This document shows, piece after piece, positions 59,827 through 62,649 of a stretch of 64,000 nt of DNA (the first letter of the stretch is position 1; the number at the start of each line of letters is the position of its first letter). The notes below the pieces were generated by a model that ran no database searches, had not been told where the DNA came from, and worked only from the letters and a program-made list of their open reading frames with translations. Made by a program: the position numbers and the translations under genes. This stretch comes from Bacteroidales bacterium (GTDB taxonomy: Bacteria; Bacteroidota; Bacteroidia; Bacteroidales; F082): positions 25,266-89,265 of the forward strand of contig JAFGXS010000034.1 in NCBI GenBank assembly GCA_016936505.1, read 5' to 3'.

Positions 59827-60002
59827 ATGATTTTATTTAGTGTCCATTAACGAAAGCGCTGTTTCAAGAAGTTTCATTTGCTTCCGTAATTATTTCCATT
59901 AGCAAACTTAGAGAATCTTTTCCATTTTTCTCTGGCAGTATGGGGTTACATACGTTAAAAATCCTGAAAATTGACTACTTTCGCGTTGCGAAAATTTACT
60001 CC

Positions 60003-60458
60003 ATGCTCAACCTTTTCACCGACGAATACTTCATGAAAGTTGCTTTAAAAGAGGCCGAAACAGCCTTTGCCGAAGGTGAAATACCCGTTGGAGCCGTAGT
60101 AGTGTGCAACGAACAAATTGTAGCCAAAGCCCACAACCAAACCGAGCGTTTAAACGATGTAACAGCTCATGCCGAAATGCTGGCCCTTACAGCGGCTTCC
60201 AATGCTTTGGGAAGCAAATACCTGAAGGAATGTACCCTGTATGTTACTCTGGAACCCTGTACCATGTGCGCCGGAGCTGCCTACTGGACACAGGTAGGCC
60301 GACTGGTTTACGGTGCTACTGACGAAAAAAGAGGGTATTCCCTGCTCGAACACCTTGTTCTGCATCCCACCACATTGATTAAAACCGGAGTACTTCAGGA
60401 AGAAAGCTCAGCACTTTTACAACAATTTTTTAAGCTTCGCCGACCAAAGAAATCATAA
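60003..60458 (+). CDS. tadA: tRNA-specific adenosine deaminase
   Basis: EIPVGAVVV, HAEM, TLEPCTMC. Start refined to ATG 60003. Confidence 0.92.
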   Translation: MLNLFTDEYFMKVALKEAETAFAEGEIPVGAVVVCNEQIVAKAHNQTERLNDVTAHAEMLALTAASNALGSKYLKECTLYVTLEPCTMCAGAAYWTQVGRLVYGATDEKRGYSLLEHLVLHPTTLIKTGVLQEESSALLQQFFKLRRPKKS

Positions 60459-60536
60459 CCAACGGGCTTTGTGTGAGTTATTAACTTTTGTTCAAAACTC
60501 TTGTGAACAGATTGTGTAAAACCACGCTTATAACTA

Positions 60537-60569
60537 TTTGACTTTACTGGTTTTAGTTGCTTATATTTG
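60537..60569 (+). promoter_or_regulatory. Complete Bacteroidota sigma-A promoter: -33 TTTG (60537-40), 21-nt spacer, -7 TATATTTG (60562-69)
   Basis: Exact match to TTTG-N19-21-TAnnTTTG with no protein gene downstream on this strand. Confidence 0.8.
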
Positions 60570-60573
60570 TGTC

Positions 60574-60988
60574 AGCAGATGAAAATAAGTGCAGGTTCTT
60601 AACGGATGATGGGTGACGAAACAAAGGTAAAATGAAAACCGAAAGGTTTTGATGGAACCGGAAACCGAAACATTCAGCGGAAGTCTGAAAAGAAATCCGA
60701 GTCTTACACAAGAGCAACGTTGAAACCGGTTGACATCCTGAAAAAAGTTTATTCTTTCGAAGCTTTTTGGAAACAAAAAGTACGGTTGAACAGCGTGAAC
60801 ACAAAGTGAAACATGATATCTCTAAAGGATACAGAAAGAAAACTTTGGGAGTTAACCTGACATGTCAGAAGCTACGGCTGAAAGACAGAGACTCAGGCGC
60901 CCAACATAATCTGCCATCAATTCGGAAGCTACGGCTGAAGAAAAGGTGACCGGAAAACGATCCCTAAAGATGGTTTTCCGGTTTTTTT
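60574..60988 (+). ncRNA. Candidate large (~415 nt) structured non-coding RNA of unknown class
   Basis: Own promoter and terminator, nested long-range helices, two GAAA and two UACG tetraloop hairpins, purine-rich linkers, no credible ORF. Confidence 0.78.
60949..60988 (+). terminator. Intrinsic terminator of the candidate ncRNA
   Basis: ACCGGAAAAC (60949-58) / GTTTTCCGGT (60973-82) stem followed by a T-tract to 60988. Confidence 0.88.
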
Positions 60989-61018
60989 GTATCCCTACAT
61001 TTCGTTTGAACCTCTGTT

Positions 61019-62527
61019 TTACCAGTTCAGATAGTGAACCTTAAATCCTGATTCTATATAGGATTCTATCATTTGTTTGCGGGAAGCCTCAGCTTGTTCT
61101 TTAGTTAGGAAACCATTGGATGTTCGATGACCGGCATCGGTTTTGCCCCAGTTGGGAATTATCTTAATCAACATCGCATCAAACCTGTAGGTTAAATTGT
61201 ATTTCTTCAGTTCGCGGTGAACATTGCTGATATACATATGATACTGCGGGTGTCCGGTTCCCTCCGGATCACAATAACAGGAGGCCACAACATAATAGTA
61301 AAAAGGCCCTGTTTTATAGTTCGGCAACGGTGCATTAATAAAGATGCTGTTATCACTTTCAACAGGATTTTTCGGAGGATTGATGTTGTTTCTGTAGATT
61401 GCTGCATGAAAACCATAGCACACATCTATTCCGGTCAGCAACAAATCCTGATCTCCATCGTGATCAAAATCGCCCCATAAAGCTTTACCATTGGTTACTC
61501 CGGGTAATCCGGCCATCACCTGCTTAAAACTAAAAGCCAGTTTATTTTCATAAACCAGTGTATACGGACGTTCCATCGATTCACCCGTGATAACAATATC
61601 CAGATCACCGTCGTGATCCATATCGGCAACATCAATATTTCCGTTCTTTAAAGGCCTGATAGGAACCGAAACCTCCCTGAAGCGAAATCCGGTTTCGTTG
61701 GAATACATATGACACTGGGGCACACCATTGCTGTCTTCTCCGGTCATAAAAATATCCACATCGCCATCACCGTCAAAATCGGCACAGGCAACGTCGCCAT
61801 TCTGTAATGGATCAAAGTTCCGGACAAAGGAAAAGGATTTTCCCTGTTCATTTTTATACAAAGCACTCACTGCTCCATTACCGTCATTTCCCATAATTAC
61901 CATATCGGGATAGCCATCGCTGTTAAAATCGCCCCAACGTGCTGCTCCGTTTACCACGCCAGGTATGCGGGTCAGAATTCTGTGAAAAACGCCCTTATCA
62001 TTTCTGTAAATATAAGTAGCCAAACGATTCCTGGCATCTTTTCCTGTTTCCAGGATATCCAGATCGCCATCTTTATCATAATCACCCCAGGCTACAGAAC
62101 CACCCGAAAGACCAATAAAATCAGGGTTAACCACCTCGGTAAACTTTCCATTCCCGTTGTTTCGGTAGAGCTTCATAACCGGAACTCCATACTGGTTCAA
62201 ACCGGTAACTACCACATCGGGCCTGCCGTCGCCATTGTAATCGCCCGCGGCAGCATCGCCATGGTACAAAGCCGGGAACGGAGAATACACCTGAACAAAG
62301 TTTCGGGAGACATTATTTTTTTCCAGTTGAGAAAAAACACTGTGCCGGGTATCCTGATAACGTTCTCCGGCAACATACGCATACGATGGGCCATTTTGTG
62401 CAATGATCCAGGTTTCTACCGGATCCATTACACCTGTAAACTGTGTCGGAATCTTAGTAAAGATCTGTGCCTTTGTAATACCAAAAGTCAAAAGAAAAAG
62501 GACCAACAACAGGTATTTCTTGTCCAT
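61019..62527 (-). CDS. Secreted FG-GAP/VCBS-repeat (beta-propeller) protein
   Basis: Repeated GD(Y/F)(N/D)xDGxxD motifs followed by Y.N; signal peptide from ATG 62527. Confidence 0.88.
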   Translation of the reverse strand: MDKKYLLLVLFLLTFGITKAQIFTKIPTQFTGVMDPVETWIIAQNGPSYAYVAGERYQDTRHSVFSQLEKNNVSRNFVQVYSPFPALYHGDAAAGDYNGDGRPDVVVTGLNQYGVPVMKLYRNNGNGKFTEVVNPDFIGLSGGSVAWGDYDKDGDLDILETGKDARNRLATYIYRNDKGVFHRILTRIPGVVNGAARWGDFNSDGYPDMVIMGNDGNGAVSALYKNEQGKSFSFVRNFDPLQNGDVACADFDGDGDVDIFMTGEDSNGVPQCHMYSNETGFRFREVSVPIRPLKNGNIDVADMDHDGDLDIVITGESMERPYTLVYENKLAFSFKQVMAGLPGVTNGKALWGDFDHDGDQDLLLTGIDVCYGFHAAIYRNNINPPKNPVESDNSIFINAPLPNYKTGPFYYYVVASCYCDPEGTGHPQYHMYISNVHRELKKYNLTYRFDAMLIKIIPNWGKTDAGHRTSNGFLTKEQAEASRKQMIESYIESGFKVHYLNW

Positions 62528-62649
62528 GCAGCGCAAGTTAATTTTAAAAGTTAAAAATAGAAATTATTTTGTAATCCATTCTTCACGCTGAAACAGTAAA
62601 TATCTACAACGCATGGTTAATAAATAGGCAACTCTGCAAAGGTTTTTTA

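Follow-up and report, generated by a model that had tools for sequence, protein, structure and literature searches.

A large structured RNA of Bacteroidales encoded as a stand-alone gene downstream of a conserved four-box array

Introduction

Large, intricately folded bacterial RNAs are rare, and the characterised classes, among them RNase P RNA, tmRNA, group I and II introns, 6S RNA, OLE and ROOL/GOLLD, perform sophisticated biochemistry. RNase P RNA of bacterial type A is built around a core of P4 and the conserved regions CR-I to CR-V and is normally present in one copy per genome. tmRNA has tRNA-like paired ends with a CCA-type acceptor and carries a tag reading frame. 6S RNA is a rod of ~180 nucleotides with a large central bubble, which binds the sigma-A RNA polymerase holoenzyme and templates pRNA. 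Among DNA-binding regulators, the replication initiator DnaA recognises a canonical box, TGTGGATAA, and DnaA-regulated promoters and clusters lie outside oriC as well, as in Escherichia coli dnaA, nrdAB and mioC and in Bacillus subtilis sda and the DBCs. We know of no described precedent for a structured RNA that is linked to the control of DNA replication via DnaA.

Here we describe an RNA gene found in the window, the 64,000-nucleotide stretch of Bacteroidales DNA that was analysed. Like OLE (RF01071), ROOL, GOLLD and raiA, its product is several hundred nucleotides long and multi-junction, with many tetraloop-capped helices; like them, it has its own promoter and terminator, a patchy but wide spread and a function unassigned at discovery. 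Unlike them, it is found in hosts of the Bacteroidales and Bacteroidia, not in Firmicutes or phages, its periphery is far more variable (254–640 nucleotides), and the OLE, ROOL, GOLLD and raiA models match neither the locus nor the homologous loci. To our knowledge, a fixed upstream box array has not been described for any of these four classes. With 6S RNA it shares a stand-alone gene of the abundant type, paired 5' and 3' ends and a conserved internal loop between two helices; unlike 6S RNA it is branched and not rod-shaped, is two to three times longer and is missing from most species of the genus. We consider it likely that the locus represents a new Bacteroidales family of structured RNAs, transcribed from its own unit and probably controlled through the upstream array; an action in trans is a more tentative proposal.

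Results

The locus is a stand-alone transcription unit

The RNA gene occupies positions 60574-60988 of the forward strand, ~415 nucleotides, where the start is predicted 4–7 nucleotides past the -7 element and the 3' end within the U tract. Upstream, on the same strand, lies tadA (59940-60458), which encodes deaminase domains and has its stop at 60458; downstream, a convergent FG-GAP repeat gene (61019-62536, reverse strand) ends at 61019. An initial annotation of the window, made from the letters alone, had placed a Bacteroidota promoter, an ORF-less stretch and an intrinsic terminator facing the convergent gene between the two, and all three are borne out. The Bacteroidota-type promoter (60537-60569, forward strand) consists of a -33 element, TTTG/TTGAC, at 60537-42 (TTTG at 60537-40) and a -7 element, TATATTTG, at 60562-69; a sigma-70-style scan also marks 60538-60567 as a promoter. 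Across 35 aligned homologues from ~25 families, each base of the -33 TTG (T78, T79, G80) and the -7 TA..TTTG is either invariant or conserved to at least 90%, and -33 TTTG/TTG and -7 TAnnTTTG with proper spacing are also kept in a set of 77 sequences. The intrinsic terminator (60949-60988, forward strand) is a G+C-rich hairpin with its stem at 60949-60982 and a U7 tract at 60982-60988, which faces the convergent gene. In 64 aligned 3' parts, pairing is kept in 93% of terminator cells, and double changes are seen in 13 of the 15 pairs.

Positions 60574-60988 contain only short ORFs with non-ATG starts. Among the homologues no ORF is conserved on either strand, and the longest ones vary in position and in start codon. 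The element is single-copy in its own genome. By sequence, the locus thus has the promoter, apparently of the sigma-ABfr type, and the terminator of a stand-alone Bacteroidota RNA gene. Alternatively, the RNA could arise from tadA, as a long 3' UTR or by read-through, or could be a cis-regulatory leader or the mRNA of a small protein; no terminator was found between the tadA stop at 60458 and the RNA, and in 17 loci the next gene upstream is tadA, both of which would suit such an origin. Against it, the promoter and the array described below accompany the RNA where tadA is not its neighbour (g13, g40 and most other families), the terminator closes the unit in front of a convergent gene and no ORF is conserved, and we regard this origin as extremely improbable. 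Positions 60574-60988 of the forward strand encode a structured non-coding RNA as a gene in its own right.

The RNA folds into two variable domains enclosed by a conserved core

The forward strand has a minimum free energy (MFE) of -115.1 kcal/mol, compared with -92.8 ± 5.5 kcal/mol for shuffled sequences (z = -4.03; 0 of 100 shuffles as good); for the minus strand the z score is -1.0. Consensus folds computed clade by clade and MFE folds of single sequences share one architecture, and the interior helices given here rest on this clade-by-clade RNAalifold comparison. For seven members of the genus, RNAalifold predicts 65 pairs, and compensatory double changes occur in 27 of these.

The ends of the RNA are joined by P1 (60575-60580, GCAGAU, with 60909-60914, AUCUGC), a helix that is present in the MFE fold, had been proposed in the initial annotation and covaries over six pairs in 79 sequences. 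Inside P1 lies a purine-rich internal loop, whose 5' strand J1/2 (60581-60588) reads GAAAAUAA in the window and GA(R)GAUAAA(A)G in the family consensus, with conserved columns, and whose 3' strand J2/1 (60901-60908) reads CCAACAUA, with the order-level consensus AAUAACAGUA. The loop is followed by the short helix P2 (60589-60592, GUGC, with 60897-60900, GCGC), found in the MFE fold and also predicted by RNAalifold. Enclosed by P2 are two multi-branched domains that vary among homologues and have many helices capped by GNRA and UNCG loops. In the MFE fold, the 5' domain (60594-60727) is closed by P3, in which GGUU (60594-97) and UUAACG (60599-604) pair with AACC (60724-27) and CGUUGA (60718-23), and carries three GNRA-capped arms, including AAAACC-GAAA-GGUUUU at 60635-50. 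The second domain (60728-60857) is closed by P8 (GGUUGAC, 60728-34, with GUUAACC, 60851-57) and contains P4 (60744-58 with 60834-46) and hairpins at 60762-81, 60794-815 and 60817-31. The MFE fold also has an internal hairpin at 60863-60887, UGUC..AGC-UACG-GCU..GACA, and most homologues have a C(UNCG)G hairpin at this site. After P1, at 60915-60948, comes a 3' hairpin, CAUC..UUC..AGC-UACG-GCU..GAA..GGUG, which is supported by the alignment of the R1 and R2 models described below. All these features are read on the forward strand.

This two-domain fold replaces part of the one proposed initially, in which P1 enclosed a helix CAGGTT..AAC / GTTAACCTG (there called P2) and, nested within it, GGATG / CATCC (there called P3). 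Enforcing these two helices together costs 9 kcal/mol, the 3' partner of the former is uncompensated and the latter is kept in the closest relative only. In clade C a G-to-A change in the 5' strand is matched by a C-to-U change in the partner in the middle of the RNA and would leave an A.C mismatch with the 3' partner, and in genus g2 the helix between the 5' strand and the middle of the RNA, our P3, is extended to 10 bp (GGUUUUAAUG/CAUUAAAACC). The energy penalty, the compensation in clade C and the g2 helix together disfavour the initial P2, and the nested pair was dropped for the fold with P3 and P8. Counterparts of P3 are found in clade B (GGUU..UUUAC/GUAAA.AACC) and in clade C (GAUUUUAG/CUAAAAUC), and the helices of the second domain have equivalents in both clades. 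The remaining proposals fared better: P4 and the local hairpins (60635-50, 60763-80, 60817-31 and the two AGC-UACG-GCU hairpins) are in the MFE fold and show compensatory changes in G010, where P4 is retained through AGUU/AACU to GUGG/CCAC. The earlier description of a large multi-junction RNA with its own promoter and terminator therefore stands, less two of its four long-range helices. A separate observation concerns the metagenome contig OFHG01012762.1 (L080), whose copy is missing ~90 nucleotides, including the 3' strand of P3, and in which the 5' strand is able to pair perfectly with the 3' AACUUG copy, as in the helix first called P2. The variant may reflect alternative pairings or an error of assembly.

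Covariation supports the core helices

The 3' part was assessed in a model-fitted alignment of 64 sequences, where 89.7% of cells are paired, compared with 72.2 ± 0.6% in shuffles and 32–46% with the partners slid, an alignment of this kind leaning towards its own structure. Double changes occur in 24 of 27 pairs of the 3' hairpin and terminator in these 64 sequences, and both sides change in 11 of the 12 pairs of helices 1 and 2 of the 3' hairpin.

For P1, the 5' and 3' segments of 79 sequences were aligned by MAFFT with no structure input. Pair 8/98 is GC in 36 sequences and AU in 43, with no mispairs; pair 9/97 is GC in 64, AU in 11 and UA in 2; pair 10/96 is UA in 37 and UG in 26. The other pairs are 7/99 (AU 67, CG 2, A.A 10), 6/100 (CG 77) and 5/101 (GC 49, UG 8, CG 7, UA 4). 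Two of the six pairs are fully covarying, with no mispairs, and pairing over the helix falls from 75% to 15–52% when the segments are slid by one to three columns. P2 covaries too, its variants, read off the alignment, being GGC/GCC, GAC/GUC, GUGC/GCAC and AACUG/CGGUU. Relatives were thus found in which helices are kept through compensatory changes, as the initial annotation had expected of a genuine RNA, and the structure of the family is supported by covariation as read from these alignments.

The RNA belongs to an order-wide family with frequent loss

In a sample of 24 species of the genus, which belongs to the Lentimicrobiaceae (order Bacteroidales), blastn detected the element in six other genomes, with the 5' and 3' ends conserved and spaced by ~430 nucleotides. 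Eight of the 24 genomes carry the RNA at the tadA site, seven found by DNA search and the eighth being G022, whose copy lies downstream of tadA and is shorter and GC-richer. The copies found by blastn share a DPP-IV / tadA / RNA context, mostly with FG-GAP downstream. The other 16 species are without the RNA, and in the 14 of them where tadA was located other genes follow it; from the absence in 16 of 24 species we infer that cells can do without the RNA and that it is no core housekeeping RNA. Exact-pattern scans of genome and metagenome contigs with the 5' motif returned mostly chance matches, the only new ones being L080 and L081, the latter a near-copy of G001 from a metagenome.

Covariance models reached much further than these scans. 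Of 272 Lentimicrobiaceae genomes, 69 contain a match to R1, a model of 98 positions of the 3' part; they represent 15 of 17 genera, and almost all have a single match. Upstream of the R1 matches lie the same promoter, a 5' motif, xCAGCAGGUGAxGAUAAAGxGCAGG, and several GNRA-capped hairpins in succession. R2, which is R1 rebuilt from 60 sequences, was run on an even sample of 401 Bacteroidales genomes and matches 53 of them, from ~30 families; in a phylum-wide sample it also matches a small number of genomes from further families of the Bacteroidia. R3, which models the upstream array, promoter and 5' end by sequence only, matches 125 of the 401 Bacteroidales genomes (78 of 237 genera), and its matches sit 300–600 nucleotides upstream of R2 matches on the same strand. 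Homologue lengths range from 254 to 640 nucleotides with a median of 398. The RNA of the window is hence no orphan and is a member of an order-wide family, with weaker relatives elsewhere in the class Bacteroidia. A few genomes (L136 of G280, contig C60 of G507, and G611) have a partial 3' duplicate or two to three full copies of the RNA gene; in G507, two copies lie ~1.5 kb apart on one contig.

The genes around the RNA differ among lineages. tadA lies upstream in 17 loci, and dnaG, which we take to be primase from its TOPRIM motifs, is the convergent downstream neighbour in 17 (L156 and 16 others) from 9 genera or families; in the genus of the window, including G000, FG-GAP takes the place of dnaG. 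Elsewhere the neighbours differ, and the array and promoter always accompany the RNA. Assigning a function from a conserved neighbour was tried and given up, tadA and dnaG recurring within related lineages only, and among the neighbours (tadA, dnaG and FG-GAP, which vary with lineage) no partner protein was found.

No Rfam 15 family accounts for the RNA

At gathering scores, cmscan of the whole window against Rfam 15 gave no RNA-family match. When the 700-nucleotide region was compared with all 4227 Rfam families at E values up to 10, the only match was to a fungal sRNA, at the chance level of 15 bits. Neighbouring tRNA genes alone were matched at gathering score in 39 homologous loci, and seven diverse members gave no match at E = 1; in all, 46 homologous loci are without an Rfam match apart from neighbouring tRNAs. 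Searches of the literature on Lentimicrobium non-coding RNA, on large Bacteroidota non-coding RNAs and on DnaA boxes combined with structured RNA found nothing relevant. The suggestion of an undescribed class is upheld by these searches at the locus and its homologues, and as judged by sequence comparison the family is new, being absent from Rfam 15 and from the papers searched.

A diverged form of a known RNA, whether RNase P RNA, tmRNA, SRP RNA, a fragment of a group I or II intron or an omega or bridge RNA, would suit the size, RNase P RNA and tmRNA being of similar length. However, the 4227 families give nothing beyond the fungal chance match, and the model of bacterial type A RNase P RNA (RF00010) does not match the locus even at E = 10. 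The genome's own rnpB lies at C3:23398-23772 (255 bits), its single tmRNA (RF00023), located by ARAGORN, lies at other coordinates, and the tmRNA model has no match at the locus; the initial statement that the sequence lacks RNase P signatures and the tRNA-like ends of tmRNA agrees with both being encoded elsewhere. The gene is in addition single-copy and syntenic, with neither a transposase nor a nuclease gene next to it. This explanation is largely refuted, and the chance that it is right is slight in the extreme. As a side observation, the tmRNA that ARAGORN reports in the own genome, c[66225,66619], has a tag peptide, DGPYLRSRTGDGTIRRWRCLIPA, that looks atypical, and its tag frame is probably mis-called.

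The RNA could also be the counterpart of 6S RNA, sequestering RNA polymerase with the P1–P2 internal loop as a mimic of an open promoter. Its internal loop is conserved, rich in A and U and bounded by helices, and RF00013 finds no 6S RNA in the own genome and 20 relatives (21 Bacteroidales), nor in a Bacteroides thetaiotaomicron control. With the control also negative, the 6S RNA of Bacteroidales is therefore not captured by RF00013. On the other side, the fold is multi-branched and not a rod, the length varies 2.5-fold, two thirds of the genus species are without the RNA, and neither RF00013 nor 6S-Flavo (RF01685) matches the locus even at E = 10. We consider a 6S counterpart very unlikely.

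A conserved four-box array precedes the promoter

Upstream of the promoter, at 60477-60521 of the forward strand, lies an array of four boxes: TTATTAACT at 60478-86, TTGTTCAAAA at 60488-97, TTGTGAACA at 60501-09 and TTGTGTAAA at 60512-20. This copy has degenerated somewhat from the family consensus, gagTTATtAACAATTGTTaATAACncnTGTTnATAnaTTGTgnATa, which is found at a fixed distance from the -33 element in 77 of the 77 homologues with enough upstream DNA. The array consists of a 20-bp palindrome, TTATtAACAA|TTGTTaATAA, followed by two direct boxes (TGTTnAT / TGTGnAT), and lies ~50–95 nucleotides upstream of the RNA start (for example in L145, L156 and L161). The array was not found a second time when the own genome was scanned.

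The box consensus, TGT(T/G)nATAA, is one position off the canonical DnaA box. The boxes depart from TTATCCACA at position 6 (TTATnAACA), and when the array consensus TTATnAACA / TGTgnATa is compared with TTATNCACA, a perfect canonical box is found in 1 of 77 arrays. Related boxes occur in front of dnaA itself: in four genomes of the genus its start codon is preceded by conserved copies of TGTTAATAA and TGTTGATAA at positions -43 and -24, and in G000 an array-type box lies at -45 of dnaA, in the leader at the genome's own C77:41571-41700. The dnaA leaders hold 9 strict boxes in 3.5 kb, versus one per 6 kb genome-wide, a density about 15-fold higher. The pattern would fit autoregulation of dnaA. 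In the dnaA-leader loci L178, L179, L181 and L182 we observed the same 9-mers as in the array of the RNA.

The densest box cluster of the genome lies elsewhere, at C58:16350-16880, with five boxes inside 400 bp. It sits in an AT-rich gap of 520 bp that is flanked by an rpiB-like gene and nadA and is near a minimum of the cumulative GC skew. This gap, away from dnaA, is a candidate oriC. Reading the array of the RNA itself as an oriC was considered and rejected, since GC skew stays below zero over 45 kb or more to either side of the locus and across the 134-kb contig.

Regulation of the RNA probably runs through the upstream array, and possibly by DnaA. Like DnaA-box clusters outside oriC, the array places 9-mers that resemble the DnaA box in a set order directly before a promoter, away from any GC-skew switch, and like DnaA-controlled systems it has 9-mers that recur in the dnaA leader. 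Unlike the DnaA-regulated promoters of E. coli and B. subtilis, its putative target is a large structured RNA and not a protein gene, and unlike canonical DnaA boxes, its putative boxes differ at position 6. The degenerate copy in the window and the rarity of a perfect canonical box (1/77) speak against DnaA, and another regulator could bind the palindrome. That DnaA binds the array, so that the output of the RNA would follow the state of the replication initiator, is in our judgement plausible, at rather less than an even chance.

Discussion

The gene unit is conserved in order, comprising the four-box array, the -33/-7 promoter, the RNA, the 3' UACG hairpin and the intrinsic terminator. The RNA folds with its ends paired in P1, followed by the purine-rich internal loop and the short P2. 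We propose that the invariant core of P1, internal loop, P2 and 3' hairpin may form a working surface, for example a protein-binding site, with the variable domains serving as a scaffold. Where DnaA occupied the array, RNA output would track the state of the initiator. An RNA that acts in trans as an accessory RNA or ribonucleoprotein is suggested by the invariant core, the variable periphery, the tetraloops, the regulated strong promoter, the usually single copy and the frequent loss. We put this forward tentatively, as a model with somewhat less than an even chance of being right: the RNA, compact and structured, may work in trans, by itself or within a ribonucleoprotein, with the core as its working surface.

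A catalytic RNA or an RNA-only assembly, such as the homo-oligomers of ROOL, GOLLD or OLE, would be an alternative to a protein-binding RNA. The many GNRA and UNCG tetraloops, the A-rich junctions and the compact multi-junction fold are in keeping with this, as are a size and ornateness like those of RNAs reported from cryo-EM to form RNA-only complexes (PMC12286853). The peripheral domains, at 254–640 nucleotides, would fit poorly into a fixed quaternary lattice, no signature of a cleavage site was seen in the RNA, and there is no match in sequence or structure to ROOL, GOLLD or OLE. We regard a catalytic or RNA-only function as unlikely, and the trans-acting RNA or ribonucleoprotein remains our preferred model.

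A more specific version of this model would have DnaA read the four-box array and switch on the RNA, which would then act on the replication or cell-cycle machinery, for example through binding to DnaA, primase or the replisome. Primase is named as a possible target because dnaG is the most frequent convergent neighbour. We consider this version improbable as a whole. If it is true that DnaA reads the array, a structured RNA would be tied to the control of DNA replication, and the circuit of DnaA, array and RNA would be a previously unrecognised regulatory wire in a unit that is old, reaching to the class Bacteroidia. The strictly conserved operator array and promoter offer a built-in handle for a direct test of expression control. 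The family is present in about a third of the sampled Bacteroidales genera, and the order dominates gut, sediment and digester communities.

Arrays of the same kind were also noticed in a Flavobacteria-like family, f150 (L171-L174), where the box array lies downstream of rplS and before an ORF-poor unit of ~450 nucleotides that ends in a strong terminator and is without an Rfam match. Distant relationship to the RNA of the window, or mere analogy, could account for this unit. The array lies ~12 kb from the start of the record in two of the complete genomes.
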